The notes: generated by a model not told the origin, from the letters alone. Counted from the stretch's first letter, positions 18,711-37,227 are shown. The stretch is DNA of 64,000 bases from Candidatus Moraniibacteriota bacterium (GCA_049303795.1 JBAQNM010000008.1:18288-82287); one strand, 5' to 3'. Numbers and translations: made by a program.

Positions 18711-18873
18711 TTTTTTTCTCCTTCTCTTTTTTAGTTATCAATGAGCATTCAAATTTAACAATCCAACATAGTATATTAATTAATTAAAGTCAAGAAGAGA
18801 GAAATAAAAAAGCTACGCCATTATTTAGATAATAGGTAGCTCTTTTCTGTTGTTGGGTTAAAAATTCAAAAAA

Positions 18874-19596: not shown

Positions 19597-20414
19597 GGTT
19601 TTTCCTCCTTACAGTTTAACTGCGATTTCTTCTTGCGCGTACGCAAAAAGTCCAAATCACTGTTCGTAAACAGCGTTCAGAAAGTTTATTAAAATTTTTA
19701 AAAAACACACTTTCTAAATATAAATGGAAGAAAGCTTTCCATCATAGCATATTATTATTATAAAGTCAAGAAAATGTACAGTTAACACCTATTAACTATT
19801 AACCAATGAATATGCCAAAGGGAAGAGAAATTACCCCTTTATAAAAGGAGAAAATCGAAGTATATTTAATAAATTCAAGCCTATAAATTTGCCCAAAGAT
19901 AAAAAAGAACTAGAGCTTTTATACTCTAATTATCCAGTTCTGCTCTCAATAGCTGATATATTCAGAAGTTTAAATCTTAATAAATTTGAATTGGATATGC
20001 AATTGCTAAATTTCACAGTATAAAAACAGAAGACCCACCATTGACACAGATGAGTTCTCTGTTGGTGGGTTGCTAAATCATTTATCGCTTATTTAATGAT
20101 GCGAATAAACTCGAAGGTGGCATCATACGTCTCATTAAATCCAGGCTTTGGCTCGGCAAGTGGCATAAATAATGGTTGTATAGAAAATAGAAACGCAAGA
20201 CCCATCCGCCTAATTTCTTGACTACTTGCTTAGTAGAAAAGGCGGTCACTACCAAGGCAATCGCCATAACCCAAAAACAAGTAACGATAAATAATAAATG
20301 AATGCTTGTCATAACTTGATTTGCTATATCATAAATTTAAGTATTATTTAAAGTAGATTGAAGAATTATTGCAATAATGAGTTTTATGAATTTAGGCGAA
20401 ATTACATCAAATAA

Positions 20415-21599: not shown

Positions 21600-22015
21600 A
21601 ATTACCTAATTATTTCATCTATTCCATCCTGTTTATAAAAAAGTTTGAATCCCACTCGGATATCCAAAATAAAAGCTTATGTAAAGCATTTGATATTTTG
21701 GCTTATTTTATTTTTTGGAACCGTGATTATTGGCTATAAAAAAGTAAAAGGCCACTCAAAATCAGTGGCTTTATACACTAGCTCCGAAGCCTGGAAGAAG
21801 TCCGAACCGCTTTGAAAAAAGAAGGAGCAACAAATTGCCACAGTGGCAGATTAGGTTAATTAACCCAGAGTAGGACTAATCGCCACTTGTTTGCCCGTGT
21901 GTCAAACGATTAAGCAAAAATGGCAGACTTGCCCAATAGGGAGAAATCAACGCGATCGTGAGCAAAATTTGAATCCCGATAAAATGCCTCGGTAAAGGCC
22001 TTTTTTGGTTATGTA

Positions 22016-22061
22016 TTGACAATATTTTTGCCACATGATATTATGTTCCCATAATGGGAAC
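22016..22061 (+). promoter_or_regulatory. Sigma70-type promoter (TTGACA-17-TATTAT) followed by a 17-bp palindromic operator overlapping the higB start codon
   Basis: ttgaca 22016-22021; tattat 22039-22044; gttcccataatgggaac 22045-22061 is a perfect inverted repeat containing ATG 22054. Confidence 0.6.
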
Positions 22062-22359
22062 AATTACACAGTCAATAATAATGAATATCCTCGGTAAAGA
22101 AAAATTACATGCTTTCAAGCAAAGGCACGCTGATGTCCGTTCACAGGTAGATGCCTGGGAGGCTGAAGTGGCTATAGCAAAGTGGTGTACGCCACAAGAC
22201 ATAAAACAGCGATATGCCAGCGCCAGTTTTTTGGCAGATAACATAGTAATATTTAACTTGAAAGGGGTAAGGTATAGATTAAAAACAAAGGTTAATTATC
22301 CATATGAAGCAGTACTAATAATGAACGCTGGAACACATAATGAATATACGCGTTGGTAA
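22054..22359 (+). CDS. higB: Type II toxin HigB-family (RelE/ParE superfamily) mRNA interferase
   Basis: C-terminal KGVRYRLKTKVNYPYEAVLIMNAGTHNEY resembles the HigB core (…IAFIDFRFKKIFVKHIVTHAEYDK); 7-nt overlap with the downstream HTH gene. Confidence 0.65.
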   Translation: MGTITQSIIMNILGKEKLHAFKQRHADVRSQVDAWEAEVAIAKWCTPQDIKQRYASASFLADNIVIFNLKGVRYRLKTKVNYPYEAVLIMNAGTHNEYTRW

Positions 22360-23582
22360 TAACAAGCAAAACTATGACAACTAAAATTAAGGTTATCAAA
22401 ACTGAAGAGGATTACCAAGGGGCTCTCAAGATGGTTGAAGAGCTAATGGACAAAAATCCCGACACCAATTCAGAAGACGGCGAAAAGCTGAGTCTTCTAA
22501 TAACATTGGTTAAGGATTACGAGTCTAAATCTATCCCTGAATCTTTACCTGATCCAATTGATGCGATCCTATTCAGGATGGAACAGCAGAATCTAAAACC
22601 ATCAGATTTAGTACCTTATATTGGAAGCAGAAGCAAAGTTTCTGAAATCCTTTCTCGCAAACGCCCACTAACCCTTTCAATGATAAGATCTCTTGAGGCT
22701 AACTTAGGTATTCCAGCTAAAGTCCTTCTGAAAGAATCAGATGAATTTAGAAATGCCGAGGATATTACATGGAATAGGTTTCCATTAAATGAAATGAAGA
22801 AACGTGGATATTTCAATGATTTACCAAAAATAACAGATATAAAGGTACTGATGGAGAATTTTTTTCAACCCATTGGATCTCCCATGCAGCTTGCTGGAAT
22901 GCTTCGTAAAACAAATTACAGATCAACTAGGCCAATGGATAAGCATGCGCTGATTGCTTGGTCCGCAATGATTGTAAAAAAAGCCAACGAAATAAAATCA
23001 GTTAAAAAATTTCAAAAAGACACTGTCAACTTGGACTTTATGCAAAAGCTGGCGAAACTAAGTGCTGAGGAAAATGGTCCTCTTCTTTCTCGCGATTTTC
23101 TTGAGAAACATGGAATCATACTAATAATTGAGCCACATTTTCCACAAACTTATCTTGATGGTGCAGCATTAATGCTTCATGGAAAAAATCCCATTATAGG
23201 GTTAACTCTTAGATATGATCGCATTGATAATTTCTGGTTTAATTTAATGCATGAATTGGCACATATAGCGCTACATTACGATGATAATTCAAACTTTTTT
23301 TATGACGATTTAGAAAATTCAGATCTATCAAATACAAAAGAGAATGATGCAGACAAATTAGCATGCGAAGCCCTTGTTCCTGAAAACAAATGGATCAATA
23401 GTTCTGCAAGACTAATCTCCATGCCTATAGCCGCTGAAAGTTTAGCAAAAGAATTGGGAATACACATAGCCATTGTGGCTGGGAAAATGAGACGCGGGGG
23501 TGATAAATATATTTATTTAAATAACATAATCAATCAGGCTAAAATCAGGACATATTTCCCTGAAATATCCTGGAAAAAATAA
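22353..23582 (+). CDS. HigA-like XRE HTH antitoxin domain fused to ImmA/IrrE-family (DUF955) zinc metallopeptidase domain
   Basis: HTH region SDLVPYIGSRSKVSEILSRKRPLTLSMIRSLEANLGIPAKVLL; C-terminal HEXXH NLMHELAHIALHY. Confidence 0.65.
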   Translation: MVITSKTMTTKIKVIKTEEDYQGALKMVEELMDKNPDTNSEDGEKLSLLITLVKDYESKSIPESLPDPIDAILFRMEQQNLKPSDLVPYIGSRSKVSEILSRKRPLTLSMIRSLEANLGIPAKVLLKESDEFRNAEDITWNRFPLNEMKKRGYFNDLPKITDIKVLMENFFQPIGSPMQLAGMLRKTNYRSTRPMDKHALIAWSAMIVKKANEIKSVKKFQKDTVNLDFMQKLAKLSAEENGPLLSRDFLEKHGIILIIEPHFPQTYLDGAALMLHGKNPIIGLTLRYDRIDNFWFNLMHELAHIALHYDDNSNFFYDDLENSDLSNTKENDADKLACEALVPENKWINSSARLISMPIAAESLAKELGIHIAIVAGKMRRGGDKYIYLNNIINQAKIRTYFPEISWKK

Positions 23583-23583
23583 T

Positions 23584-24681
23584 ATGTCTGATTCAAAAAT
23601 TTACACACCCATATTAAGATGGAAGGCTGCTGAGAAAGAAGCTCTCCAAGAGCTAAAGGATGAAAATAAAAACTTCATTATTCCGCTATTGGAACTGCTG
23701 ATGCCTCAACCAAAAAAAGCGAAAAAGGGAGAAGCTCCAAAAGTGCAGAGTCCAGCTGAACTACTCATGGAATCAGTAGAAATTTTTGAGTCAACATCGA
23801 ATGAAATAGCACAAGATATCAAAAAACATTGGGGAAATAAACATTTCTTTTTAGATTTCAAATTATTGCATGCACCAATTATATTAGAGGGATTAAAAAA
23901 TGTACTAACTACGGGCGATAGCGCAGGCATCTCAACAATACCGGTAATGCATTTGAGTTACGATGCTGATATTAAAAATGGCATCATTTCACTAGTAAAA
24001 AAGCATAACGCTGAATTATGCTTGAGATTGTCACGATCTGATATAAGCGAAGATTCCATTGCAACTAAAATCAACGAGTTTCTGAAAAGCTATGATTTGA
24101 AAGAAGAAATCATACATTTAATAGTTGATCTAAAAATCACGGACGAAGATTATTCTACGCTTACTGGCAAGATTAACAGCATTCCTAATATAAATAAGTG
24201 GAAAACATTTGCTATAGCGAGTGGCGCTTTCCCTCCGGACTTAACACAATTCACTACGCCCGATTTATACCGAATACCTCGTACAGACTGGACAAACTGG
24301 GTAAATTTAATAAAAAATCTTACAAGGAAACCCTCCTTCGCAGATTATACAATTCAGCACCCTATTTATAAAGAACCGACTGGCAATGTAAACCCGAGTG
24401 CGAGCATAAGATACACAACCCATTCCGAGTGGATGATTATGCGAGGCAGAGGCTTGCGTTCACCAAAAAGTGGTGGATTTGCTCAGTATCCACCACAAGC
24501 GAAACTACTATCAGACCAGCCAGAATTTGCTGGTGCAGGTTTTTGTTTTGGCGATGATTATATCGAAGAAAAAGGTAAAGATATACATACGAAGAAAACT
24601 GGAACTCCAAGAACCTGGTTGCGAGCCGGAATTAATCGACACTTGGCATGCACTGTAGCTCAGATCGCCAGTTTAACCTAG
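23584..24681 (+). CDS. Uncharacterised protein, possibly Beta-protein (sce7725-like) family; third gene of the higB operon
   Basis: Starts 2 nt after the preceding stop; N-terminal YTPILRWKAAEKEALQEL resembles the Beta_protein family opening. Not verifiable without an HMM search. Confidence 0.4.
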   Translation: MSDSKIYTPILRWKAAEKEALQELKDENKNFIIPLLELLMPQPKKAKKGEAPKVQSPAELLMESVEIFESTSNEIAQDIKKHWGNKHFFLDFKLLHAPIILEGLKNVLTTGDSAGISTIPVMHLSYDADIKNGIISLVKKHNAELCLRLSRSDISEDSIATKINEFLKSYDLKEEIIHLIVDLKITDEDYSTLTGKINSIPNINKWKTFAIASGAFPPDLTQFTTPDLYRIPRTDWTNWVNLIKNLTRKPSFADYTIQHPIYKEPTGNVNPSASIRYTTHSEWMIMRGRGLRSPKSGGFAQYPPQAKLLSDQPEFAGAGFCFGDDYIEEKGKDIHTKKTGTPRTWLRAGINRHLACTVAQIASLT

Positions 24682-25303
24682 AGCGCAATTGCTCCCTGAC
24701 TATCTCTTTCAAGGTTTTTTTATCCAAAACTTCAGCTAGCCTCTCATATATAGCTTTTCTATTTTTTGAACGCATGCCTTTGTCCTGTCCAATTTTTTCT
24801 AAAATCCCCAGCGCCTCTTCTCTCCATAACAGTGCTGCGACAGCCGCGCTGTTTTGATTTTTATTTTGTTCAGCCTCTCTTATCTTGCAAAAAGAAACTG
24901 CGTTATTTGAATCTACAATTTTTGCAATTGTTATGCCCCACCAATCAGGAACTATTTTTATTGCTTCGTGCAAATGATTTTTACCCACCACTAATGTCAC
25001 TCTGTCGAGAACTGTATTGTATACTTCAATTTGACCAGGTAATCTCTTGAGGGTATCTTTGTCACTTTTTAATTCATAGCCATGAATAACACCGTTAACA
25101 ACGGCAATATCAATACGAGCCTCGCCATGAGTAAGTCCCAGTTCTTCAATTATCTTCGTATTTTTAAGACTTCCATAAGACTCTTCCAGTTTTTCTTTGA
25201 GCGCAGTTCGAATCATCCTATCATTCGTAAGAATAAAATGTTGACTATGTATTTTAGGCAACTGTTTTTTCATATTTTGTTTTTGTATTATTTCTTTTTT
25301 CAT
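24632..25303 (-). CDS. sce7726-like protein with PD-(D/E)xK nuclease-type motif
   Basis: GEARIDIAVVNGVIHGYELKSDKD carries D...E-x-K spacing typical of PD-(D/E)xK; 3' end overlaps the convergent gene by 50 nt. Confidence 0.4.
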   Translation of the reverse strand: MKKEIIQKQNMKKQLPKIHSQHFILTNDRMIRTALKEKLEESYGSLKNTKIIEELGLTHGEARIDIAVVNGVIHGYELKSDKDTLKRLPGQIEVYNTVLDRVTLVVGKNHLHEAIKIVPDWWGITIAKIVDSNNAVSFCKIREAEQNKNQNSAAVAALLWREEALGILEKIGQDKGMRSKNRKAIYERLAEVLDKKTLKEIVREQLRSRLNWRSELQCMPSVD

Positions 25304-25354
25304 TATAACAAATAAAATAAAAAAATGACACTAAAAATATCCTTGCTAATTGGT

Positions 25355-26275
25355 TTATTTTGTAATGAAATCCAATGCCCCTTTTTCAATCATATCGAGT
25401 GTAAGAAGATAATCATTATGATTAAAGGTTTCTCTCAATGGACGCTGTGTAGTTTTCCAACCATTGCCGTCAGTAATCCAAATAAATTTATACTTTCCAT
25501 CCAATACATCAAAGAGGTTCCTATATTCGCCAGCCGTAGATTTCAGCTTTGAACCACCGCCTCCATAAAAATTAGTCTCAAAAATAAATAGCTCTTTACC
25601 ATTTTTAACAACAAAATCATATCTCCGGGAGGACTTATCAACTGGCACATCAAAGCCCCATTGAGCTTTAATTTTTCCAGCAGTCGCTTCTTTGAGATAT
25701 TCAAAGCCATTTCTCTTACATAAATCACTGATGAAGAATTCGACTATATCTTCCATGTAATGCCCGCTCCTATTTTTTCGTCCATTACTATCAAGTCCAG
25801 CCTCAACGCCAATCATATAGTCGACAAGATTTTTTATTTTCTGAGATATAATCAAATCCTTCAATCCTGATTCCTTAACAAATTTAAGATATTTTTCCAC
25901 ATCTTCATCGGTCGGATTTTCCTTACTAAAATCATACTCCTCATAAACAAATTTTTTGTGCTTGTAATCAACAAGAATTTTGAAACTTGCACTATTGCCT
26001 CCATCCCTGACCACTAAGGCAGGAATGGCTTTTATGGCTTCGGGGTTTTGTTTGACTAGGAATCTAAACTCCTCATCAAAGTTTTCCTTGCCAACTAAAT
26101 AATTCAGGTTATTCAAAGCAAGCTCAATTTTCTTGGTATTTTCAAACACCTTGTCCCAATTCACAAAATATGACCACAGCAGAATACTTGGCTTAATGTT
26201 TTTAATAAGGCAATCAAACACTTCGTCATTACTATTGCAATTTAATGTGTTCCTGTAAAAATCTAGGTTTTTCAT
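25355..26275 (-). CDS. Type II restriction endonuclease, DpnII/MboI family (GATC specificity inferred)
   Basis: N-terminal LWSYFVNWDKVFENTKKIELALNNLNYLVG resembles the DpnII family start (…DFPKVY…ALN.MN.LIG); last gene of the methyltransferase operon. Confidence 0.55.
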   Translation of the reverse strand: MKNLDFYRNTLNCNSNDEVFDCLIKNIKPSILLWSYFVNWDKVFENTKKIELALNNLNYLVGKENFDEEFRFLVKQNPEAIKAIPALVVRDGGNSASFKILVDYKHKKFVYEEYDFSKENPTDEDVEKYLKFVKESGLKDLIISQKIKNLVDYMIGVEAGLDSNGRKNRSGHYMEDIVEFFISDLCKRNGFEYLKEATAGKIKAQWGFDVPVDKSSRRYDFVVKNGKELFIFETNFYGGGGSKLKSTAGEYRNLFDVLDGKYKFIWITDGNGWKTTQRPLRETFNHNDYLLTLDMIEKGALDFITK

Positions 26276-27090
26276 TGTATTGTTTTTAGTTGATTAAACC
26301 TTTTTATTGATAAGTCTAAATACTTTTTTTCCAAGTCTATTCCGATAAACTTCCTCCCGTGTTTCACTGCTGCAATCCCTGTCGTCGAGCTTCCCGCAAA
26401 CGGATCTAACACGACATCGTTCTTGTTTGTACTTGCCAGAACAACCCTATTGAGCAAATCCAACGGCTTCTGTGTTGGATGCTTTCCGAAAAACTTCTCT
26501 TCTTTCTTAGGGGTATTGATTGACCAAACAGATCTCATTTGCAAACCACTCTTTTTCATTTGGTCTTCAGGCCACTCACCATTTTTCATTAAATCATAAT
26601 TGAAGATATGACCAGCTTTTTGGTCTTTTCGCGCCCAAAGCAGTGTTTCATGACTTGCAGTAAAAAAGCGACAGCTCAAGTTTGGTGATGCATTTGGCTT
26701 AAACCAAGAAATATCATTAAGGATTCTGAAGCCATGCTTTTGAAGCGCAAATCCGCATTGATAGATTGAATGGTATGTTCCGCTAATCCAAATAGTTCCA
26801 TGAGGCTTCAACACTCTCCTGCAGGCCTCAATCCAAGACAAGTGGAAATTAAAATCATCCTCAACTCCTTTACTCAAATCCCAGTCTCCCTTTTTAACAC
26901 TAACCATTTTTCCATTCTGACATGTAAATGTTCCACTTGAAAGGAAATACGGCGGATCCGCAAAAATCATATCGATTGAACCTTCCGGCAATTGACTCAG
27001 CAACTTCAAGGCATCGATATTATAAAGAACAAAATTATCTGCCTTAAAAAATGGCTTTTCTTTTACTGATGATAATATCTTGTTAGCCAT
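26272..27090 (-). CDS. DNA methyltransferase (N6-adenine/N4-cytosine type; DpnA-like second methylase)
   Basis: DPPY motif IFADPPYFLSSG; SAM-binding motif I-like FAGSSTTG near C-terminus (beta-class order). Confidence 0.75.
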   Translation of the reverse strand: MANKILSSVKEKPFFKADNFVLYNIDALKLLSQLPEGSIDMIFADPPYFLSSGTFTCQNGKMVSVKKGDWDLSKGVEDDFNFHLSWIEACRRVLKPHGTIWISGTYHSIYQCGFALQKHGFRILNDISWFKPNASPNLSCRFFTASHETLLWARKDQKAGHIFNYDLMKNGEWPEDQMKKSGLQMRSVWSINTPKKEEKFFGKHPTQKPLDLLNRVVLASTNKNDVVLDPFAGSSTTGIAAVKHGRKFIGIDLEKKYLDLSIKRFNQLKTIQ

Positions 27091-27104
27091 TTTTATAATT
27101 TATC

Positions 27105-27956
27105 CTAGTAATTCAAAATCAAAAGCTCTTTAATTTTTCCTCTTCCGCTAGCTTTGCAGTTAATCGCCCTATTTGCCATGACAGTCTCACGACGGTATTT
27201 TTTATATATTTCATTGATGAATGGCGTGTGCGAATTACTCAACATCACATAGCAGCCTCTTTTATCAAGTTCATCAAAAACATTCCTGAGTTTCAGCTGA
27301 TCTTCTTTTGTAAAACTATCCTTGTGATAACTGGTAAATTTAGCTGTTTCAGTTAATGGATGATATGGCGGATCGAAGTAAACAAAATCTCCTTTCTTTG
27401 CTTCTGCAACAGCTTTTTCAAATGAAACAGATGTTAACTTTGTATGTTTTAAAACTTTTGAAACTAACAAGATATTTTCTCTATCAAGAATGGTTGGATT
27501 TTTTGCCTTTCCAAATGGAGTATTAAAACCACCTTTTGAATTTTCCCTATACATCCCATTGAAGCAAGTCTTATTTAGAAAAATAAGATAAGCACTCTTT
27601 TTTAGTTCAGTATTCGATGTATTGTTAAATTTATCTCTTATTTTATAGAAAAGCTCCTTTTGGTTTTCTTCATTTCCATTTTTATATTCATTCTCTAACT
27701 TCTTAAGAATCTTCATTACTTCCTCAGGCTTATTTTTTATATTCTTATATGTAGAAATAAGCGTTGCATTGACGTCATTTATGTGAGCTTTTGTCGGGCT
27801 CAAATTAAAAAACAAAGCGCCACCTCCAATAAAAGGCTCAAAGTAATTATTGAAATCTTTTGGATAGTATTGTTCAAATTGAGACAATAACTGAGCTTTG
27901 CCACCAACCCACTTTAAGAAAGGTCTAGCTTGAATGTCTTTATTTCTTGGAGTCAT
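27105..27956 (-). CDS. Dam-family N6-adenine DNA methyltransferase (DpnM-like)
   Basis: LKWVGGKAQLL N-terminal SAM motif; DPPY VYFDPPYHPL. Confidence 0.8.
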   Translation of the reverse strand: MTPRNKDIQARPFLKWVGGKAQLLSQFEQYYPKDFNNYFEPFIGGGALFFNLSPTKAHINDVNATLISTYKNIKNKPEEVMKILKKLENEYKNGNEENQKELFYKIRDKFNNTSNTELKKSAYLIFLNKTCFNGMYRENSKGGFNTPFGKAKNPTILDRENILLVSKVLKHTKLTSVSFEKAVAEAKKGDFVYFDPPYHPLTETAKFTSYHKDSFTKEDQLKLRNVFDELDKRGCYVMLSNSHTPFINEIYKKYRRETVMANRAINCKASGRGKIKELLILNY

Positions 27957-27964
27957 GATTTTTA

Positions 27965-28189
27965 TTATTTAATTAGCTCCTCAAGGGGTTCCTTGAAGGC
28001 ATCGGCAATCTTTTTTATAGTACTAATTCTTGGATCCGGAGTCCGCCCACTCTCGATTTTTGCAATGGTGTGATAATCAAGCCCTGTTTCCCTAACCAAG
28101 TCACTCTTGGAAAGATGATTCTTTTTTTTGAGCCTTTTTACATTCTTTGCGATTTCAGAACATGCCTTATTTAGTGCTTCTTTTTTCAT
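27965..28189 (-). CDS. XRE-family HTH protein (putative controller of the RM operon)
   Basis: 74 aa, HTH LSKSDLVRETGLDYHTIAKIESGRT; first gene of the co-directional RM operon. Confidence 0.55.
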   Translation of the reverse strand: MKKEALNKACSEIAKNVKRLKKKNHLSKSDLVRETGLDYHTIAKIESGRTPDPRISTIKKIADAFKEPLEELIK

Positions 28190-28319
28190 ATTGATAAAGT
28201 TTTACTATGTATCATAATACTATGTATAATTATACCAAATTAAGGGAAAAGCGCAAATAGAAAAAACCGACCTGAAGCCGGTAAAAGTAAGTAGCAAAAG
28301 AGGTAATTTTATACGATAT

Positions 28320-28559
28320 TTAACCTTCTGTTTTTAGTCGATCAATTTTTTCCGAAACAATCTCCATCACTTCTGTCAAAAGGACAACCAATAGAGCCCA
28401 AAGAGCGGTCCAGGTGGCATAAATAAGCAGCTCACGGCCAAATTCCAGCTTATACAGGCCAATAGCAACAATGGCGCCATCCACAAGCGCAAAAAGCGCC
28501 AAGATCATTCGCAAGAGTCTGAAAAATATTCTGAGTGAGTAAAATGTCTTTAATGTCAT
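28320..28559 (-). CDS. Small membrane protein
   Basis: 79 aa, two TM helices. Confidence 0.3.
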   Translation of the reverse strand: MTLKTFYSLRIFFRLLRMILALFALVDGAIVAIGLYKLEFGRELLIYATWTALWALLVVLLTEVMEIVSEKIDRLKTEG

Positions 28560-28573
28560 ATGATTTAAAAATT

Positions 28574-30367
28574 CTAATCATTCAATTTGTCAGCTAATTT
28601 ATTCTGTTCCCTAAATAGTGTAGCATCTCGATCAATCAATCCCTGCTCTTCAGCACTAAGCCATTGATTTGTTTCCATTTTGGATAATATCATTCTTGCA
28701 TTTGAAATCCTTTCTGAAATTATAGAGTTTATCCGATTAATATCCTTTTTATGTTCCTTGTAATAAATATCGTATTTCTTCAAATCCTCCCAGCCTGGTT
28801 TTATTTTCTTCAGATCAGAAACAGTTGATCTCCAGGAATCAATATCTGACTGCTTGTAATTCGGTGGCGAATAACCTGCCAAATGTTGAATAATTACTTG
28901 AGTAGGGCAACCATTCATTTCTCCTCGCACAACCGCAACTCCAATATCCTGGTACTCCTTACTTAAAATAAATTCTTTGGATTCCGGAAATTCAAACTGA
29001 TTTTCTATAAGCTCTTCGGAGCTATAATATCCCTGTGTTGGTAATTCTCCATAAACAATATTTGAGTATCCAGCATCACGCATGGCTTTTTTCATACCAT
29101 AACCACTCTTGTCGGCATCAAAAGAAAAATCGGCATATTTCAATATGACATCACCTCGAAGCTTGGCTGATTGTTCGAGTCTTGATTGATATTTTAATGG
29201 TGGCAAGCCTACTTCTTTACGTTTTTCATTTACTAAATTTGTATATTTATTTGTATCTAAAACAACAAGAGAGCTGTTATCAAGGTCATGAGTAGTATCG
29301 CGCCAATTTTTATCAAGCTTACCATGCTGTTTTTCCAAGGGAATGACATTGAGTATATCGTCATAATCAATAACACCTAATTTTGATCTAGAATCTTGGC
29401 TAGCCTTTCTATTATCTCCCATTACAAATATTTTTCCTTCCGGGATTGTTATTGGTTGGCATTCTGAAAAGAATTGACTGCCAAGCGTAGATCTTGGTTC
29501 GGCTATGTAAGGCTCCTTTTGGGGTATATTGTTTAGATAAAAAATTCTATCCCTGATTTCAATAGTATCACCTGGTAAGGCCACTACTCGCTTAATGTAG
29601 CTAGTGTCTTCTTTAGATAGTTCTTTGACCATATCATTTGAAAAAACCACAATATCTCCGCGCTTAATTTCATATGAAAAGAATTTCTGTCCCATAAATT
29701 CAATGCCTGACGGATACGTTATTGTTCTTGTGGGTAAAGTTATTTTTTCAGAATTTTCATCATCTCCCTTCGGAAATGTTGGATACATTGATCCACCCGA
29801 AACCATTATTGGAGAAATCATTTGACCTGTTCTGGTGCCAACAAACCAAGCTGTTGCAATATAGCCACCAATCCACATTGGCAAAATGATGATAAAAGAT
29901 ACAAAAAAAGCTCCTGATTTAAGAGCAAAAGTTTTAAATTTGAATTCTTTCCAATATTGTCTAATACCAAGAGATTTCAACTTTCTAAATAATTCAATTG
30001 GCTGCAAGATATTCCATAAAAGAAATATTGGTAAAATTGTTAGAATAAGAGCAGCTTTTATACATGCAGATATTGGATTATTTTTTGTAATATTTTTCCC
30101 TTGCAATTTATAAGTAATTGCGATTAGTCCAACACTAAAAGAAATTACGCCCATCACAACAGCAAGGACAAGCATCAAAATGTGTGTATTTGAAATTTGA
30201 GTGGCTGTTTTGTTTTCAATCAAAATAAAAATACCAACAAATGCCAGTACACAAAGAAACCAAAATGAAAAAGAAGTTAGAACCAGAGGCGAAAGTTTAT
30301 CTTTTAATTTCGTTATTTTCATAATCAATCTCAATTCCATAATCGTACCCCTCCATGGCTGGAACAT
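28574..30367 (-). CDS. Membrane-anchored signal peptidase I (S26) domain fused to a C-terminal CAP (SCP/PR-1-like) domain
   Basis: Several N-terminal TM helices; SPase boxes VSGGSMYPTFPKGD, YIKRVVALPGDTIE, VMGDNRKASQDSR; C-terminal CAP-like region (GYSNIVYGEL..., HLAGYS). Confidence 0.55.
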   Translation of the reverse strand: MFQPWRGTIMELRLIMKITKLKDKLSPLVLTSFSFWFLCVLAFVGIFILIENKTATQISNTHILMLVLAVVMGVISFSVGLIAITYKLQGKNITKNNPISACIKAALILTILPIFLLWNILQPIELFRKLKSLGIRQYWKEFKFKTFALKSGAFFVSFIIILPMWIGGYIATAWFVGTRTGQMISPIMVSGGSMYPTFPKGDDENSEKITLPTRTITYPSGIEFMGQKFFSYEIKRGDIVVFSNDMVKELSKEDTSYIKRVVALPGDTIEIRDRIFYLNNIPQKEPYIAEPRSTLGSQFFSECQPITIPEGKIFVMGDNRKASQDSRSKLGVIDYDDILNVIPLEKQHGKLDKNWRDTTHDLDNSSLVVLDTNKYTNLVNEKRKEVGLPPLKYQSRLEQSAKLRGDVILKYADFSFDADKSGYGMKKAMRDAGYSNIVYGELPTQGYYSSEELIENQFEFPESKEFILSKEYQDIGVAVVRGEMNGCPTQVIIQHLAGYSPPNYKQSDIDSWRSTVSDLKKIKPGWEDLKKYDIYYKEHKKDINRINSIISERISNARMILSKMETNQWLSAEEQGLIDRDATLFREQNKLADKLND

Positions 30368-30816
30368 GTGCCGGAATTATTTTCCGAATAACTTATAATT
30401 CCGTCATTGCAATATGCCGTTGGCACTCTGAGCGGGAGTGGAAATACATTCATGTTATTACTGAGCATATTGGCTTTGAGTTCTTTGGCTCTAGAAATTG
30501 TATTTTGTGAGTAATCATTCAGTACTTTCCTGCAATAATCAAAATGATGAGTTGATATACGTTGATAATTTTCTATAACCTGCTTACTGCAATCTCCGTC
30601 TGTATCATTGGGTGTGCATGAAAAGGAATTCAGTTCGATGGTGTCGTCTTTATTAAAAGACACTCCAGCAAGGTTTACTTTCTTTGCGAGAAATTTACTT
30701 TCAGTAGAAACCATGCCATTAATATACCCCAATACATATCCGCCCATCACAAAACATATAGCCAATATCAATAGCCAATAATTAAATTTACTTTTATGAT
30801 TTTCTTTGTGTTCCAT
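30331..30816 (-). CDS. Cys-rich membrane-anchored/secreted protein
   Basis: Start trimmed to MEHKENHK (the upstream track ORF runs into a GC-rich structured element); one TM then Cys-rich domain. Confidence 0.4.
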   Translation of the reverse strand: MEHKENHKSKFNYWLLILAICFVMGGYVLGYINGMVSTESKFLAKKVNLAGVSFNKDDTIELNSFSCTPNDTDGDCSKQVIENYQRISTHHFDYCRKVLNDYSQNTISRAKELKANMLSNNMNVFPLPLRVPTAYCNDGIISYSENNSGTCSSHGGVRLWN

Positions 30817-30836
30817 AAAAAATAAGCAACAAAAAA

Positions 30837-30978
30837 GGACAACCTGCTGGTTGTCACACCCAACTGAACACGAACACGAGGTTGCGCTCAATTGTTTTAG
30901 CAAGGTTGCCCTGTTCCAAGAACAACCTCGCCTGATAATCAGGGCGTTCGTGCTAATCATATTCAGTTGAGTGTGACA
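30837..30978. other. GC-rich nested inverted-repeat element (candidate structured RNA or recombination site)
   Basis: gacaacc/ggttgtc; gtcacacccaactgaa vs ttcagttgagtgtgac; cacgaac/gttcgtg; cgaggttg/caacctcg, all nested within about 140 bp. Confidence 0.4.
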
Positions 30979-31067
30979 TTAATAAAATACCATCAAACAG
31001 CTTAATATACAAGTGTTTGATTGATTTTTTCCGCTCGCTAGGGTAGATTAAAGAAAAGGGAAAACTT

Positions 31068-31910
31068 ATGAATGAATTGGCAGCAGAAATTGCGTTTGCT
31101 AGGTATGGCCTTAATCAAAGATTTCAGGCCGTGCATGATCGTGCGGGAAAAGACGACGGCGATCTTTTTTTATCAGCTCGCGATGCCTATATTAGGTATA
31201 TTAGGAATAGTTTAATTTTGGAAAAAATATTAGATGAAGGCTTACTGAGTAAACTTATTCCTAGCGAGGACTTACCTTCTGAAGAACGACCTGATCTATT
31301 TTTTATGACTAATGATGAAGTAGCTGATGAAATAAAAAAGGAATTCGCTACTATTTGCAAAGTACATGACATTCTAACCAAAGGACTCGGTGAGACACTC
31401 TCTTTTGCAATTCCACATAATGCAAGCAATGCGGATACTGCGTATCTTCATAATTCCATATCAGCACAATCTGGACAGCCAGCTCTACGGCAAGATATTT
31501 CAAAAAACAACAAGCCTAATATTCAGCACATAACAGTAGTCAAAGAAACTAATAGGACTAACCGTTTTATAATAATAAACAAAGATTATCCGGAGGCTAT
31601 TGAAGTTAAGGGTTTGAATTTTTCTAAGCATGTTAAGGCATTATCTGATGCTATATTAAGTAAAACTGATACACTGGAAACTGATGACTTTCTACGATGC
31701 ATGAATTTTTTAAATACCCACTCCGGATGCAGGATATACAGAAGTCGTGATGGAAAGTCACAAAAATACCACCTTACAAATATCGTAAGCATCAAAAAAG
31801 CTTTTACTGGTGAGCGTCTAGAGCTAGCTGATAAAATAAAAGCAGAGATAATAACTCATGCGGTCTACCAAAAACGTTTAAGCAATCATACATCCAACAA
31901 GCAGACTTAA
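31068..31910 (+). CDS. Hypothetical protein
   Basis: 280-aa ORF. Confidence 0.35.
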   Translation: MNELAAEIAFARYGLNQRFQAVHDRAGKDDGDLFLSARDAYIRYIRNSLILEKILDEGLLSKLIPSEDLPSEERPDLFFMTNDEVADEIKKEFATICKVHDILTKGLGETLSFAIPHNASNADTAYLHNSISAQSGQPALRQDISKNNKPNIQHITVVKETNRTNRFIIINKDYPEAIEVKGLNFSKHVKALSDAILSKTDTLETDDFLRCMNFLNTHSGCRIYRSRDGKSQKYHLTNIVSIKKAFTGERLELADKIKAEIITHAVYQKRLSNHTSNKQT

Positions 31911-32041
31911 TTAAGTTACTTAACTATTGCATCCATAAAAAAGCGCTTTAAAAGGCGCTTTTTTTCGCTTGTTTTAAGTAACTTGGCTATGTTTTTAAGC
32001 ATGGGTTTCGTGTTTCACTAAATACAGTAACACGAAATCAT

Positions 32042-32209
32042 ATGACTACATTTTCTAAAAAAGAAATAGAAGAATTAGTGAGATTGCATCGCGAGGAATT
32101 GGGATTAGATGTCTCCGAAGAAGAAGCTTGCCAATATGCTACACAGCTAGTGGAACTTTTTCGTGTTGCTTATCGGGACATTCCAGACACTAAATCACCG
32201 CCTTAAAAA
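32042..32209 (+). CDS. Small acidic protein (55 aa) upstream of the primase-like gene
   Basis: ATG 32042 to TAA 32207-32209; MTTFSKKEIEELVRLHREELGLDVSEEEACQYATQLVELFRVAYRDIPDTKSPP. Confidence 0.3.
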
Positions 32210-32210
32210 T

Positions 32211-32777
32211 ATGGAATATAAAGCACCAAAATTTACTGACCGGGAATTGCTTGAGCTTTTCCCTGAAGCCAGGAAAATAATCCCAATAAAAATCAAAGAA
32301 GTTGAGGCAGACATATGTGAAAAGAAAGCTGCTATTGAAGATCAACTAAGGAGGCTTTATTCCATGAAGACGGATAGCTTCTCTGAGTGGTTCGGGGAGG
32401 AACTAATAAGAAAACTCGTTATGCCGGAACTCACCGCTATGGAGAAAAATCTTTTCCGACTGAAGCGCTTCCAGCAGCTGATGCATCCCAAATCAAAAAA
32501 ATCCAATTGGTTCAAGTTTGAAGAAAAGATCGAGGTTGCTAGGAATTATTCGATTGAAGCAGTGGCCCGGGACAAGCTGGAGCTTAAGCAAGCAGGCAAA
32601 AATCTTATTTCACTCTGTCCATTCCATGATGAAAAGACTCCTAGCTTCTATATCTACCCCGAAACAAACTCATTTCATTGTTTTGGGTGCCAGGAACACG
32701 GAGATGTAATTAAATTAACTATGGCTCTCTATTGTCTGGAGTTCAAAGAGGCAGTTGAGTTGCTACAAAACAAATGA
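32211..32777 (+). CDS. DNA primase-type zinc-finger (CHC2) protein
   Basis: CPFHDEKTPSFYIYPETNSFHCFGCQEHGDVIKL is a zf-CHC2 (DnaG-like) motif; start taken at ATG 32211, in frame with track ORF 32163. Confidence 0.5.
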   Translation: MEYKAPKFTDRELLELFPEARKIIPIKIKEVEADICEKKAAIEDQLRRLYSMKTDSFSEWFGEELIRKLVMPELTAMEKNLFRLKRFQQLMHPKSKKSNWFKFEEKIEVARNYSIEAVARDKLELKQAGKNLISLCPFHDEKTPSFYIYPETNSFHCFGCQEHGDVIKLTMALYCLEFKEAVELLQNK

Positions 32778-34102
32778 GTAAAACTACACAATTAGAAGAC
32801 ATCAAAAACGATGTAAAAAACAATACTCCAGCCAAAAACGAGAGATTCGTTAAACTAACCCCAAGAACAAAAATAGGAATTGAGGAGTGGAAAAACATCC
32901 TAAGTGACAACTTTCCCGATCTGGCTTTTGCCGCTGAAGCAGGACTCAGTGTGATTGGACAGTTGCTCATAGATGACGTAAAAAATCCCTTCGCGCTCGT
33001 CTATGTTGACGTTCCATCGTCCGGAAAAACAGTAACATTAAACTTTTTCTCTACCATCAAAGAATTAGTCTTTACGGCAGATGACTTCACTCCGGCATCA
33101 TTCGTTTCACATGCGGCCAACAGAAAGAAAGAAGATTTAGAAAAAATTGATATGCTTCCACAAATACGATACAAAACGCTCTTAGTCAGAGATATGGCGC
33201 CAATTTTTGCCAAAAGAGATGAAGATGTGCAAGAAATGCTCGGGATCTTGATAAGAGTCTTAGATGGTGAAGGATATGAAAAAAGTGGTGGAGTGCATGG
33301 AAAGCGCGGTTATATTGGTGATTATTTGTTTATGCTTCTATCGGCCTCTACTCCAATAAGACCAAGGATCTGGAAAGTGATGGGAAATTTGGGATCGCGG
33401 CTATTTTTCTTCAATATCGATGGCGCAGAAAAAGATGAGCTGGCACTTGCTAACCAGTTAAAAACATCATGCAGAGATAAAGAGATTATCTGCCGTGAAG
33501 CAACAGAGGAATTCATAAAAACACTTTGGAGTAAGTATCCGCAAGGAATCATATGGGACAAGGAAAAAGATGATACGAATCTTACTCAAATCATTGCTCG
33601 CCTAGCTATGGTATTAGCAAAACTTAGAAGTCCCATAAATGTATGGGAGGAAGCAGCTGGGCAGAAAAAATATAACCACACACAAATAATAGTTGAGATG
33701 CCGGATCGATTGAACCAGCTCCTGTATAACGTTACGCGCGGACATGCACTTATTTGTGGACGAAAAAACATAACCCGAGATGATTTAGTGATGACCATAC
33801 GAGTAGCATTGGACTCAGCTTTGCCAAATCGATCCAAAATTTTTAAGCACTTGATTTATAATAATGGCCAGTTAGGCACAAACGAAGTTATGCAAATTCT
33901 TAAATGTTCTAGGCCCACCGCTCTGAAGATAATGCAGGAAATGACTCTTCTTGAATTAGTAGGTACAGATGACGACTTAGAAGACGAATCACATTTTATT
34001 GGCAAACAAGAACAAAACATAATTCTCAAGGATAAATACTCCTGGTTCATTAGCGATGAGTGTAAAAAGTTAATCAGTCACGGTGTCAGAAATGGTTCAT
34101 AA
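32774..34102 (+). CDS. Replication-associated protein with P-loop-like motif
   Basis: VDVPSSGKTVTLNFF Walker-A-like; translationally coupled to the primase zinc-finger gene (overlap ATGA). Confidence 0.4.
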   Translation: MSKTTQLEDIKNDVKNNTPAKNERFVKLTPRTKIGIEEWKNILSDNFPDLAFAAEAGLSVIGQLLIDDVKNPFALVYVDVPSSGKTVTLNFFSTIKELVFTADDFTPASFVSHAANRKKEDLEKIDMLPQIRYKTLLVRDMAPIFAKRDEDVQEMLGILIRVLDGEGYEKSGGVHGKRGYIGDYLFMLLSASTPIRPRIWKVMGNLGSRLFFFNIDGAEKDELALANQLKTSCRDKEIICREATEEFIKTLWSKYPQGIIWDKEKDDTNLTQIIARLAMVLAKLRSPINVWEEAAGQKKYNHTQIIVEMPDRLNQLLYNVTRGHALICGRKNITRDDLVMTIRVALDSALPNRSKIFKHLIYNNGQLGTNEVMQILKCSRPTALKIMQEMTLLELVGTDDDLEDESHFIGKQEQNIILKDKYSWFISDECKKLISHGVRNGS

Positions 34103-34640
34103 AGCAAATCTGACGCTGTGCCAGAAGAATATGGCAAAAAAAGAAAAAAGGAGCAAGAGAACTATTATGGCCATTAAGGAATCTCAAGAAGACGAGATGG
34201 CAGAAGCAATAATGCTCGCAGAATTTGACAGAAAAATGACACCCAAATTCAAAGCTTGGTCAGCTCTGTATATGGACAAGAGCAACAAAGAATATTGGGG
34301 AAATGCCACCAGGTGCGCCCTGGAAACATACAACACAACAAATATTGCGAGCGCAGCACGAATAGGTCACGACAACACAAGAAAACTCAAGATTTTCATA
34401 GGTACAATTTTGGAATATGAAGGAATGGGAATGAGTGAAATGGTAAAGATTGGCGCGGCCAAGATGCTTAAGGGAACATTCCAGGACTGGAAAGAATTGA
34501 TGATTATGGCGGGATATTATGATCCAAATTACAAACCAGACGTGGAAATAAACATAGGAGCTATCTACAATATCGCCAACTTGAGTGCCGATATTGCAAA
34601 GGCTAGAAGAGATCGAGGGCTCGACAAAATTAGGCACTAG
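34083..34640 (+). CDS. Hypothetical protein
   Basis: 185-aa ORF. Confidence 0.3.
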   Translation: MSEMVHKANLTLCQKNMAKKEKRSKRTIMAIKESQEDEMAEAIMLAEFDRKMTPKFKAWSALYMDKSNKEYWGNATRCALETYNTTNIASAARIGHDNTRKLKIFIGTILEYEGMGMSEMVKIGAAKMLKGTFQDWKELMIMAGYYDPNYKPDVEINIGAIYNIANLSADIAKARRDRGLDKIRH

Positions 34641-34694
34641 CTATTATTCGTGTTTCGGGTATTGTGTTGTTACAAAACCCAAACAAAAAAAGAA

Positions 34695-36311
34695 ATGAAT
34701 CAAGAAATTGCTAAACCAATTAAATATTTCCTCTATGCAAGAAAGTCCTCTGAAAGCGAGGATCGCCAAATGCAATCCATTGAGGCTCAGATAGGAGAAC
34801 TTACCCAAATAGCCGAACAGCAAAACATAGAAGTTGTGCGGGTATTTTCTGAATCCAAATCGGCCAAGGCTCCGGGTCGAGAAGTATTTGAGGACATGAT
34901 AAAAAGAATCAAGAAAGGCGAAGCTAATGGAATAGTCTGCTGGAAATTAAATCGCCTAGCTAGAAATCCAGTGGACGGCGGAGAAATAAGCTGGATGCTT
35001 CAGCAAGGAATAATCCAGCATGTCCTAACCTTTGGAAGAAACTACTATCCGAGCGACAATGTCTTGATGATGGCGGTAGAGCTCGGCATGGCCAACCAAT
35101 TCATTCGCGACTTGAGTGTAGACACCAAGCGAGGGCTTCGCCTTAAAGCTGAGAAAGGCTGGTGTCCCAATATGAGCGTCTTGGGCTATACCTACAATCC
35201 AAATAAAATCAAAGGAGAAAAAGAAATAATAAATGATCCAGCAAGATTTGATTTAGTGAAGAAAATGTGGAAGACGGTTATCTCGAGAAAATATACCGTC
35301 AATGAAACTTACAACCTAGCGATAAAAGAATGGGGTCTCACAAACAGAAAAGGTGGCAAAGTCTCGATCGCTTCATGGTATGCCATGCTTCATAACCCCT
35401 TCTACTATGGCTGGTTTGAATTTCCTAAAGGCAGTGGCAATTGGATTCAAGGTAAGCACGAACCCATGATAACTAGAACAGAATTTGATAAGATTCAAGC
35501 GATGCTTGGCCTGAGGGGAAATACGCGTCCTAAAAACTACGACTTTGCCTATACTGGAATAATGCGCTGTAAAATTTGCGGGGCTATGATTACGGCTGAG
35601 AATAAAACTAAAAAGAATAAAAATGGAAATGTTCATCATTACATTTTCTACCATTGCTCAAAAAGGAGAGATCCAAACTGCCCCGGAAGAAAATCTGTGG
35701 AAGAGAAAAAACTAGAAGAACAAATTCAACAGCTCATACAAACAATCGACATCCCGCCCGGCTTCAAGGAATTCGCAATCCAGCACCTCAAAAAGAATTA
35801 TGCCGAAGAACTGGGAGCTGGTAAGCGGATCCACGACAGCCAAACTCGAGCCCTTGAGGCCAGTAAAAATAAACTTAGTAGACTTGTAGACATGCGGCTC
35901 AATAACGAGCTGTCAGAGGCAGAATTCAGCTTCAAGAAGCAAGAATTACGCAAGGAACAAGAGCTCTTGGACAATGCCCTGAGGAATGAAGAAGCTCCAA
36001 AGGAAACTTGGATGGAAAAACTGGAAAAGACCATGGATGTTGCCGAGGATATTTGCGAAAGGTTCAAAAATGGAGATTGGCGCGGCAAAAAACAACTGGT
36101 TGCGAGCCTTGGCCAAGACCTCCATATGAAAGACAGCCAGTTTGTTATCGGAGAAGAAAACCCAATTCTCCGAATAAAGAAGATCGCAAAGACTTCTAGG
36201 GCAATTTACGAAAAAGCAACGGACCCGCCGGATAGTAAGGAGATGGAACTTGCCTACGCCAGCTCTACGAAACTTCAAGGACAACTAAAGGAATTGGTCA
36301 GAGAAAAATAA
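34695..36311 (+). CDS. Large serine recombinase (integrase)
   Basis: Catalytic YARKSS; resolvase domain, recombinase domain, Cys-rich zinc ribbon (CKICGAMI...CSKRRDPNCPG), coiled-coil C-terminus; start taken at MNQEIAK within track ORF 34650. Confidence 0.85.
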   Translation: MNQEIAKPIKYFLYARKSSESEDRQMQSIEAQIGELTQIAEQQNIEVVRVFSESKSAKAPGREVFEDMIKRIKKGEANGIVCWKLNRLARNPVDGGEISWMLQQGIIQHVLTFGRNYYPSDNVLMMAVELGMANQFIRDLSVDTKRGLRLKAEKGWCPNMSVLGYTYNPNKIKGEKEIINDPARFDLVKKMWKTVISRKYTVNETYNLAIKEWGLTNRKGGKVSIASWYAMLHNPFYYGWFEFPKGSGNWIQGKHEPMITRTEFDKIQAMLGLRGNTRPKNYDFAYTGIMRCKICGAMITAENKTKKNKNGNVHHYIFYHCSKRRDPNCPGRKSVEEKKLEEQIQQLIQTIDIPPGFKEFAIQHLKKNYAEELGAGKRIHDSQTRALEASKNKLSRLVDMRLNNELSEAEFSFKKQELRKEQELLDNALRNEEAPKETWMEKLEKTMDVAEDICERFKNGDWRGKKQLVASLGQDLHMKDSQFVIGEENPILRIKKIAKTSRAIYEKATDPPDSKEMELAYASSTKLQGQLKELVREK

Positions 36312-36495
36312 CTCCACGCGAAAAATGCGAGGAGTTATTTTTTTATTCTATCAGATTTCCAAATTTAGGTTCGAACCTCTTCGAAATCCCATTATTACAG
36401 GGTTAAATGCGTTTTTTGGTCATTATCAGTCCTGTTCTCGTCAGGCCTATTTTTTGATAGGTTCGAACCTCCTGAATTTGGCTTATATAACGCAC

Positions 36496-36522
36496 AAACC
36501 ACCTCTTTTGAAGGTGGTTTCT
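36496..36522. terminator. Hairpin
   Basis: aaaccacctcttttgaaggtggttt, 9-bp stem. Confidence 0.4.
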
Positions 36523-36530
36523 GCGCAATG

Positions 36531-36603
36531 CTCCGCGACCAGGACTCGAACCTGGAACAAATTGATTAACAGTCAATTGCTCTACCATTGAGCTATCGCG
36601 GAA
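36531..36603 (-). tRNA. tRNA-Asn (GTT)
   Basis: Reverse complement TTCCGCGATAGCTCAATGGTAGAGCAATTGACTGTTAATCAATTTGTTCCAGGTTCGAGTCCTGGTCGCGGAG folds as a cloverleaf; anticodon loop CTGTTAA. Confidence 0.85.
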
Positions 36604-36977: not shown

Positions 36978-37227
36978 TCATCTTCACCCTCAAACTTACA
37001 TCTCCTTGTACTTTATTTCCCTCCTACCTCATTCTTCTTTCCTTTACCACCACCCAATCCCTTTCCACCTTATTCCCCTCTTCTTCCTCCTTCTCTTTCT
37101 TCCTTCTCCTCCTTCCTCATCCTCACCTTTCCTTTTCCCTTCCTCCCCTCTCCCTTCTCCTCCCTCACCCACTTTTATTCCTCTCCTTCATTCCTTCCTC
37201 CCCCTTTCACTTTTACCCCCCCCGAAG
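36978..37227 (+). repeat. About 250-bp polypyrimidine (C/T-only) low-complexity tract with at least 6 CCTCC motifs
   Basis: Virtually no purines on the + strand across the tract; stands out against an AT-rich genome. Confidence 0.7.

Follow-up and report, generated by a model that had tools for sequence, protein, structure and literature searches.

How does a serine integrase, an enzyme whose characterised counterparts mostly target protein-coding genes, come to lie beside an intact tRNA gene, and where does the DNA that it brought along begin and end? The question is raised by a 64,000-nucleotide stretch of DNA from Candidatus Moraniibacteriota (hereafter the window, with positions counted from its first letter), in which the gene for a large serine recombinase ends close to a gene for tRNA-Asn(GTT). 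The answer proposed here, to which we give a probability of about 0.85, is that positions 21781-36535 hold an integrated plasmid-like element of 14,749 bp, which its serine integrase placed at the end of the tRNA-Asn gene. In one respect the finding is already ordinary, as defence-carrying integrative elements at tRNA genes go; what is unusual is that the integrase at the tRNA end is a serine and not a tyrosine enzyme, that the core measures 6 bp, that the T-loop would serve as recognition motif, that the integrase 3' end is overprinted, and that the family is broad within a phylum that has received little study.

The two ends of the element

The host tRNA-Asn(GTT) gene occupies 36530-36602 on the minus strand (ARAGORN; Rfam, 73.9 bits), and its nucleotides 69-74, read on the opposite strand, form the attR core GCTCCG at 36530-36535 (+). 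The same 6 nt recur as the attL core at 21781-21786 (+), and identity between attL and attR in the window is confined to them. In the four complete elements (that of the window and the related loci L046, L049 and L059), the stretch common to attL and attR amounts to just 6-8 nt, and element sizes span 7.3-14.7 kb across the window and its relatives. The crossover dinucleotide would fall within the 6-bp core. The body of the tRNA gene, 36536-36602, is host DNA, and the tRNA is intact after insertion; its T-loop sequence, CTCGAACC on the plus strand, begins 15 nt from the first base of the core and constitutes the B' arm.

At the opposite end, the arm on the element side of the core is the P' arm AAGCCTGGAAGAAGTCCGAACCGCTTTG (21787-21816, +), in which the family motif T[TC]NGAAC begins 20 nt from the first base of the core; the element-side arms of relatives share the pattern GCTCCG-N5-TGGAnGAAG-T(T/C)(A/C)GAACC. 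The regular expression GCTCC-N14-16-T[TC]NGAAC has a single match in the window, at 21781 (+), against 0.09 expected, and also matches left ends or attP-type junctions in 10 relatives. A position-weight matrix derived from the element-side arms of nine relatives, with the window excluded, scored 31.8 bits at 21781 (+), the runner-up on either strand of the whole window reaching 12.1 bits. The same matrix found the left end of another locus, L125 (25.7 bits), which has a matching attR in an intron-split tRNA-Asn gene and the same replication module as the window, at 74% identity. As there is one strong matrix site, on the expected strand and in the expected place, the left boundary is set at 21781-21786. 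The earlier note had guessed that this boundary lay at 21.6-22.0 kb, a bracket now narrowed to the core itself. From the extent that it had proposed, 22016-36603, the tRNA-abutting end is retained, and both outer coordinates have to move: the start to 21781-21787, position 22016 being the promoter of the first cargo operon, and the end to 36535.

On the host side of attL, which forms the B arm, a terminator scan revealed an intrinsic-terminator hairpin, GCCACTGATTTTGAGTGGC followed by CTTTTACTTT (21751-21769, minus strand), 12 nt beyond the core. This minus-strand terminator, running from 21769 to 21751, would have been the tRNA-Asn gene's own before the insertion; a comparable hairpin with a T-run lies to the left of attL in L049, and T-rich B arms occur in further relatives. 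The 40-mer spanning the reconstructed attB reads CTTTATACACTAGCTCCGCGACCAGGACTCGAACCTGGAA. A copy of the tRNA 3' half, sought at 14-40 kb and then in the whole window, was not found; that there is no long tRNA-derived direct repeat follows from the integrase being a serine enzyme with a 6-bp core. An element carrying such a copy was considered and is ruled out by the junction pairs described below and by the 6-bp identity. Direct and inverted 16-mer matching of the right end to the left region returned low-complexity noise and one weak match at 21.99 kb, and an Rfam search of the GC-richer intergenic stretch at 21.6-22.1 kb gave nothing significant.

The integrase family and its tRNA targets

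The integrase gene lies at 34695-36311 on the plus strand (open reading frame (ORF) 34650-36311, with 34695 as the likely start) and encodes 538 amino acids (aa). Its product matches the Pfam domains Resolvase (PF00239, 1.2e-18), Recombinase (PF07508, 1.8e-8) and Zn_ribbon_recom (PF13408, 1.8e-8), carries a YARKSS motif in which Y14, A15, R16, S18 and S19 are invariant in 20 homologues, and is 100% identical to P0001, annotated as 'recombinase family protein, Candidatus Moraniibacteriota' and present on contigs of up to 113.6 kb. By its domain set, the nucleophile context R-x-S-S and the short att identity, the protein is classed as a large serine recombinase. A serine recombinase with the YARKSS motif, 220 bp from tRNA-Asn(GTT), had been claimed before; the three domains uphold the assignment, and the distance from stop codon to tRNA 3' end comes to 218 bp.

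Does this arrangement belong to the one locus, or to a family? Integrase homologues that are 61-91% identical (L001-L005) likewise lie beside tRNA-Asn, with the same backbone and different defence cargo, and in all five of these close relatives the integrase gene ends about 215 bp from the tRNA 3' end. The backbone opens with a membrane protein of 79 aa and a large protein that is membrane-bound or secreted, often followed by a DUF3761 protein. Beyond a divergent promoter region come, in this order, an unknown protein, a small acidic one, a primase-type domain with a conserved module of about 440 aa, a further protein of about 160-185 aa and, last, the integrase. The cargo to the left of the 79-aa gene is an AlwI-type restriction-modification (RM) system in L001, a type I RM system with AAA_21/DUF4435 in L002, and a type I RM system plus a faint TIR-domain hit in L003; that of L004 comprises methyltransferases, RmuC and a faint TIR-type hit (in the leftward extension, L149), the L004 element being larger than the 12.8 kb retrieved, which stops short of its attL. 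Past the tRNA gene, the DNA is rpoD-dnaG in L001, L002 and L004 as against TrmB-CofD in the window, and these different neighbourhoods indicate that the element goes with the tRNA and not with the neighbourhood.

A broader survey took in about 84 loci, namely 80 metagenome loci from an integrase-alignment scan (37-62% identity) and L001-L004. A minus-strand tRNA gene lies at the integrase stop in 48 of them; it is mostly tRNA-Asn, with subclades at tRNA-His(GTG), tRNA-Ala(GGC) and tRNA-Leu(TAG), and the four target tRNAs track the integrase subclades. At least 10 further loci that had counted as 'no tRNA' have a tRNA-Asn gene split by an intron. The intron belongs to group I and sits in the anticodon loop (Rfam RF00028; 68.8 bits in L002, 11836-12467, and 44.7 bits in L125, 13969-14395). 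Intron-split tRNA-Asn genes, which ARAGORN misses, are also present in L052, L065-L067, L071, L100 and L105, and the L002 intron holds an ORF-sized insert. A crossover in the anticodon loop, an idea prompted by L002, was rejected once the tRNA of that locus was seen to be interrupted by the intron. In most loci the integrase frame enters the tRNA gene antisense by 10-42 nt, and at tRNA-Asn loci it ends in ...LLRGxDSNxxPID*, with the stop codon in the anticodon loop.

Where, then, does the exchange take place? Pairs of loci that share an integrase and part company at the tRNA speak to this question. L075 and L078 are 100% identical to L076 through the integrase and diverge from it right past the last 7 nt of tRNA-His; their alternative flank encodes Replic_Relax, two coupling-protein-like (TrwB-like) ATPases and a primase (L075 being a 44%-identical relative), a gene content that marks the flank as element DNA. 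L066 and L068 agree at about 96% identity as far as GCTCCGCG of tRNA-Asn, and part company in the T-stem that follows. In several loci the integrase end is joined to a non-tRNA arm after GCTC(C)(G), and the L055 flank is homologous to the left end of the 7.5-kb L112 element. Judged by these paired junctions, the crossover falls at the very 3' end of the tRNA.

Some loci bear further traces around their junctions. A few hundred bp outside its active attL, L049 has degenerate attL-arm copies at 3840-3900 and 4020-4060, each with a hairpin before it, which suggests that this tRNA had received insertions earlier; farther out than these arms there is a type III restriction gene. In L048 (about 11232) and L077 (about 5824), the tRNA-Asn gene breaks off right after the T-loop TCGAACC and gives way to unrelated DNA, which may reflect the insertion of another element. 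Downstream of its one integrase, L109 has two near-identical element-side arms 1,080 bp apart (2498 and 3578), which may be a tandem array or a remnant.

The geometry of the sites can be compared with that of known systems. An 8-mer resembling TTCGAACC (T-loop) begins at +15 (counting from the core's first base) in the tRNA arm of 28/28 loci, and under a strict test the same 8-mer stands at +20 in the element arm of the window and of 5/11 relatives; the looser T[TC]NGAAC is found at +20 in 9/10 element arms. For the A118-type integrase of Listeria, and by proposal for others, the zinc-domain motif lies 5 bp further inward in attB than in attP (PMC3783163). With the centre placed inside GCTCCG, the motifs fall here at half-site positions of about 11-19 and about 16-24, which matches that description in the right-hand arms only.

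The serine integrases of phages and of integrative and conjugative elements (ICEs), among them phiC31, Bxb1, A118/LI, SPbeta SprA, CcrAB and XisF, thus share with the present enzyme its domain set, a very short identity between the ends and the 5-bp motif offset, and NCBIfam reports sub-threshold similarity to XisF and Ccr recombinases. Unlike them, the present integrase has as its target the last 6 nt of a tRNA plus the T-loop, not a protein-coding gene; its family switches among tRNA-Asn, -His, -Ala and -Leu, and the motif is clear in one arm per site. A different parallel is offered by streptococcal ICEs in rumA, which carry the att site within their serine integrase gene, so that the C-terminus is swapped upon integration (PMC4701971). 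Most relatives of the window element likewise have the crossover within the integrase 3' end and a C-terminus that differs between the integrated and excised forms, whereas their partner is a tRNA read antisense, and the clade of the window has lost the coupling, its integrase having a stop of its own 218 bp before the core. With the tRNA islands of tyrosine integrases (P4-like satellites, pSAM2-type elements and those catalogued as Islander/TIGER), the element has in common the position at a tRNA 3' end, a tRNA-proximal integrase, a tRNA that stays functional and defence cargo; by contrast, the enzyme family differs, and the direct repeat is tens of bases long there as against 6 bp here. Because the repeat is this short, the left end would escape island finders that rely on repeats; a search for a duplicated tRNA 3' end cannot locate the far boundary of such an element, which may explain under-reporting. 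In the literature searched, which was covered in part and beside which island databases may hold cases without comment, no tRNA-targeting serine integrase was found described.

What is the DNA between the integrase stop and the tRNA? This non-coding right end, or P-arm region (36312-36529, +; alignment of five loci), has a hairpin with a T-run just past the integrase stop (about 36310-36345), two TAGGTTCGAACCTC boxes (36366-36379 and 36458-36471; a 14-mer present twice, with 0.23 expected) and a hairpin abutting the tRNA 3' end (36496-36520). In most family members the equivalent stretch is the end of the integrase gene itself, where the T-loop-like palindrome GGTTCGAACC occurs twice, at -173 and -70 relative to the core's first base; the boxes hold these positions in 27/28 loci and are fixed in nucleotide sequence, among integrases just 37-60% identical to that of the window, and their two different reading frames give G-S-N and F-E-P. 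In this coding version, too, a hairpin abuts the tRNA end, within the ELAYSSS region. The clade of the window has a diverged, box-free integrase C-terminus, in which LGQDL and EKATDPP replace LGSNL and RFEP, and its own stop. The non-coding right end accordingly reads as a relic of an ancestral integrase C-terminal coding region. In four relatives it is 72-94% identical to the window copy, as against 49-70% at integrase third-codon positions, and this higher conservation implies that the stretch is functional as DNA or RNA. It would provide the P arm and equip the tRNA transcript with a new hairpin in place of the old, and the best guess for the boxes is that they are extra integrase-binding sites.

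The opposite end of the element also carries non-coding DNA, about 230 bp directly inside attL (non-coding left end, 21817-22053, +), with a strong promoter at 22016-22044 (TTGACA-17-TATTAT with a TG, near-consensus) ahead of the PD-Lambda-2 operon. A palindrome, GGTTAATTAACC (21854-21865), lies about 76 bp inside attL, roughly mirroring the right-hand box about 68 bp inside attR; in L049, GGTTCGAAAC occurs at about 62 bp inward from attL.

Two observations concern the integrase gene and its upstream neighbour. The integrase tail (…KLQGQLKELVREK, 36270-36311) bears a weak likeness to the peptide obtained by translating through the core and on into the element-side arm (LLRSLEEVRTALKKE, 21781-21830), and the end of the window's integrase gene may derive from an old attP-type junction, perhaps by way of a deletion inside a tandem pair. 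Immediately ahead of the integrase gene, L001 (9439-9903) and L002 (9431-9904) have an additional ORF of about 155 aa that is 48% identical to the Recombinase domain of the integrase (residues about 139-286). In the window, the gene directly upstream of the integrase (34083-34640, +) encodes a conserved protein of 157-185 aa, which is 51-65% identical in L001-L004 and has no family match in Pfam, PHROGs or NCBIfam; by its position, it is a candidate recombination directionality factor.

Alternative readings and a proposed mechanism

Several points weigh against an integrated mobile element at 21781-36535. Neither an empty attB nor an attP junction was seen for the element of the window, three metagenome-assembled genomes and several Logan contigs of the species all being integrated; the GC content of the island is not distinct from that of its flanks; the left half-sites (the B and P arms) have no clear inverted copy of the motif, so that the att sites look asymmetric; and neither a recombination directionality factor nor transfer genes were recognised in the window copy. 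The regular expression, moreover, was devised after a few relatives had been inspected, and the matrix, for all that it excludes the window, is not fully blind. Exact-protein look-ups for TrmB, HigB, the MFS protein and the integrase returned the integrated arrangement only. Among 25 genomes compared for synteny around CofD homologues, none was syntenic to the left of CofD and none had tRNA-Asn there. As to gene order in related genomes, same-species assemblies all carry the island, distant relatives differ to the left of CofD, and attP-type junctions exist in the family. Searches of the element with Pfam, PHROGs and NCBIfam found no relaxase, coupling-protein or type IV secretion genes and no oriT.

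Could the island have arrived as described and since become a fixed, immobile defence island that is inherited vertically? That every same-species assembly with flanks also carries it, that no circular junction was seen and that the integrase gene of this clade is uncoupled from the att site would all fit such a history; yet the integrase retains its full length and its invariant catalytic residues, each att arm agrees closely with the family consensus, purifying selection acts on the non-coding right end, and the same clade occurs with other cargo in other genomes, so that we regard fixation as unlikely, if deserving of serious thought. An element that reaches further left than 21781, taking in the genes at 14.5-21.6 kb, is improbable. 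Those genes look accessory, their order is not conserved in relatives, and L049 does have a decayed older attL beside the active one, but the window offers no second P'-arm-like site (the next best scoring 12 bits), the terminator and the core sit exactly at 21751-21786, and none of the genes at 14.5-21.6 kb occurs in related elements.

A more basic doubt is whether the element is plasmid-like at all. The earlier note had left the choice between an integrated plasmid and a phage-like element, and the second of these would make it a prophage or phage satellite, for which the P4 cII-like gene and the PD-Lambda-2 system, typical of P4-type satellite hotspots, could be cited, as could the frequency of serine integrases in phages. 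No capsid, terminase, portal, tail or lysis gene was detected by Pfam or PHROGs, however; a viral contig collection holds no close relative of the integrase, only a distant family, about 430 aa long, that is not linked to tRNA genes, and a distant relative of the element carries relaxase and coupling-protein genes. A phage origin is for these reasons highly improbable, and it is the plasmid-like alternative that the backbone of the relatives, the junction pairs and the matrix site favour. Lastly, the absence of a long tRNA direct repeat, together with the usual preference of characterised serine integrases for protein-coding genes, might be taken to mean that the tRNA lies nearby by coincidence and that the recombinase is an invertase or resolvase for something else. 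This is scarcely credible given that the arrangement recurs in about 50 independent loci, at four tRNAs tracking the integrase subclades, and that junction pairs exist; the family survey already contradicts coincidence.

With the locus read as an integrated plasmid-like element, the following mechanism can be proposed. The integrase would have joined attP to an attB spanning the last bases of tRNA-Asn, the exchange taking place inside GCTCCG at tRNA positions 69-74. The tRNA body would thereby remain host-encoded, with the 3' trailer alone replaced: the original tRNA terminator would now stand 14.7 kb off, just outside attL, and the element would provide a substitute hairpin beside the tRNA. 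As the outer recognition motif, the integrase would use the T-loop TCGAACC at 15 bp on the tRNA side and T(T/C)(A/C)GAACC at 20 bp on the element side. Once excised, the element would presumably be replicated by its zinc-finger and MCM-like proteins, and its left third is exchangeable defence cargo. Of all this, the gene content, the sequence of either junction and the pattern seen across the family are shown.

A broader reading may be ventured, although we hold it to be somewhat short of an even chance. It is that this is a large integrase family of the candidate phyla, not found described in the literature searched, which uses the universal tRNA T-loop sequence as its outer motif and has been retargeted among tRNA-Asn, -His, -Ala and -Leu through a changed reading of the acceptor end; that the ancestral attP, the tRNA terminator and the two GGTTCGAACC palindromes were overprinted on the integrase 3' end; that the C-terminus switches between the integrated and excised states; and that the palindromes bind protein as accessory sites, for which serine integrases offer no known precedent. 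Such a role for the palindromes is suggested by their being fixed in two frames and kept where the DNA is non-coding. Little is known of the mobile elements in Patescibacteria (the candidate phyla radiation), and the present element provides a precisely bounded example together with a rule for finding more: one looks for GCTCCG and the arm motif on the upstream side of an integrase gene adjoining a tRNA gene. It also illustrates how PD-Lambda-2 and RM systems spread among such bacteria, whose genomes are small. Perhaps, too, a serine integrase with a short, near-universal tRNA-end target and naturally retargeted relatives could become a starting point for genome engineering.

Cargo, backbone and flanking genes

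The left third begins with three plus-strand genes: component A of PD-Lambda-2, HigB-like (22054-22359; PADLOC, 9.5e-38), component B, with a helix-turn-helix (HTH) and an M78 peptidase domain (22353-23582; PADLOC, 5.8e-149), and component C, a Beta protein (23584-24681; PADLOC, 8.2e-45). The trio at 22054-24681 is assigned on these matches to the PD-Lambda-2 anti-phage system, in the order A-B-C on one strand. It had previously been taken for a toxin-antitoxin and defence cluster; the assignment to defence stands, and the toxin-antitoxin label gives way to the three PADLOC components. The genes that follow lie on the minus strand. A 223-aa phage P4 cII-like protein (24632-25303; PADLOC 'cll', 3.3e-30; PHROG 984; PF26915) is succeeded by a DpnII endonuclease (25355-26275; PF04556, 4.4e-90; PADLOC), an N6_N4 methyltransferase (26272-27090; PF01555, 4.1e-60), a Dam-like D12 methyltransferase (27105-27956; PF02086, 1e-63) and an HTH control protein (27965-28189; Pfam). 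By its domain content the operon at 25355-28189 is identified as a DpnII-type type II RM system, in agreement with the RM cluster recognised earlier, here resolved into the endonuclease, two methyltransferases and the HTH gene.

Next come three minus-strand membrane-protein genes. The 79-aa membrane protein (28320-28559), which is 62-74% identical in L003 and L004 by tblastn, marks the inner edge of the variable cargo in relatives. A polytopic membrane protein with S26 signal-peptidase and CAP/YkwD domains (28574-30367; Pfam, NCBIfam) is 58% identical in L001, and L003 keeps just its N-terminal membrane part. The membrane-anchored DUF3761 protein (30331-30960; Pfam), for which gene callers start at 30816 to give 161 aa, is 81% identical in L003, and DUF3761 also occurs in the L049 and L123 elements. 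The signal-peptidase-CAP fusion with membrane proteins described in the earlier note is thus found again, at 28574-30367 and 30331-30960, as is, further on, its small acidic ORF, which is conserved in relatives (32042-32206, +; 54 aa; isoelectric point 4.67; 50-57% identical in L001-L004). Before the latter, the rightward operon opens with a 280-aa protein (31068-31910, +) that is conserved in position and not in sequence, and that has no family match in Pfam, PHROGs or NCBIfam.

How might such an element replicate? A DnaG-type CHC2 zinc-finger protein (32163-32777, +; Pfam PF01807, 2.4e-25; gene callers start at 32211, giving 188 aa) is followed by a 442-aa protein (32774-34102, +), to whose gene it is translationally coupled by an ATGA overlap. 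Within 32163-32777, Pfam and NCBIfam find the PF01807 zinc finger alone and no Toprim or polymerase catalytic domain. A primase coupled to a P-loop protein had been proposed as a replication module: the zinc finger, the ATGA coupling and the P-loop are all present, and it is the designation as primase that must be given up, the protein having the zinc-binding domain only. The primase-type slot is subject to exchange: the window, L122 and L125 have just the zinc finger, L002-L004 a Toprim domain and L001 a Prim-Pol domain, the last two types being fused to the downstream module of about 440 aa.

The 442-aa protein, to judge from its fold, is an MCM-like AAA+ ATPase with a C-terminal winged helix. 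Its AlphaFold2 model (pLDDT 82.5, pTM 0.85) has MCM2-7 subunits as the top Foldseek matches (probability 1.00, E about 1e-7, TM 0.4-0.48), and in the Walker-A-like VPSSGKT the residues G84, K85 and T86 are invariant in 35 homologues. Sequence searches of Pfam, NCBIfam and the PDB gave no match; about 1000 homologues exist, chiefly in candidate-phyla bacteria. The protein resembles MCM helicases in its AAA+ core, its C-terminal winged helix and its pairing or fusion with a primase-type domain, and differs from them in having no sequence match and no N-terminal MCM OB/zinc domain, and in that its partner is merely a DnaG zinc finger. It is presumed to be the replicative helicase or initiator. 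The same zinc-finger and MCM-like module (76% identical) is paired in L122-L124 with a different, 529-aa serine recombinase, the frame of which overlaps an entire tRNA-Arg(TCG) gene.

To the left of the element, accessory-looking genes on the minus strand (14548-21599) encode RibD_C, a 3-demethylubiquinone-9 methyltransferase-like protein, a glyoxalase/bleomycin-resistance fold, a methyltransferase, a secreted lipoprotein of a nuclease/phosphatase family and an MFS transporter (20415-21599); promoter-like 35-mers at 18762 and 19738 are 80% identical to one another. Two integrase-bearing Logan contigs stop at 36558 and another begins at 36580, both points inside tRNA-Asn, which suggests a branch in the assembly graph across the anticodon stem-loop, arising from a strain variant or from a similar tRNA in the community. 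The boundary of PD-Lambda-2 components B and C, at 23611-23616, is where two contigs of GCA_049286985.1 meet. Upstream of the TrmB-like gene, 36985-37225 is a polypyrimidine (CT-rich) tract of about 240 nt with loose repeats of 7-21 nt, and the contigs of three other assemblies terminate within it, at 37185-37204.

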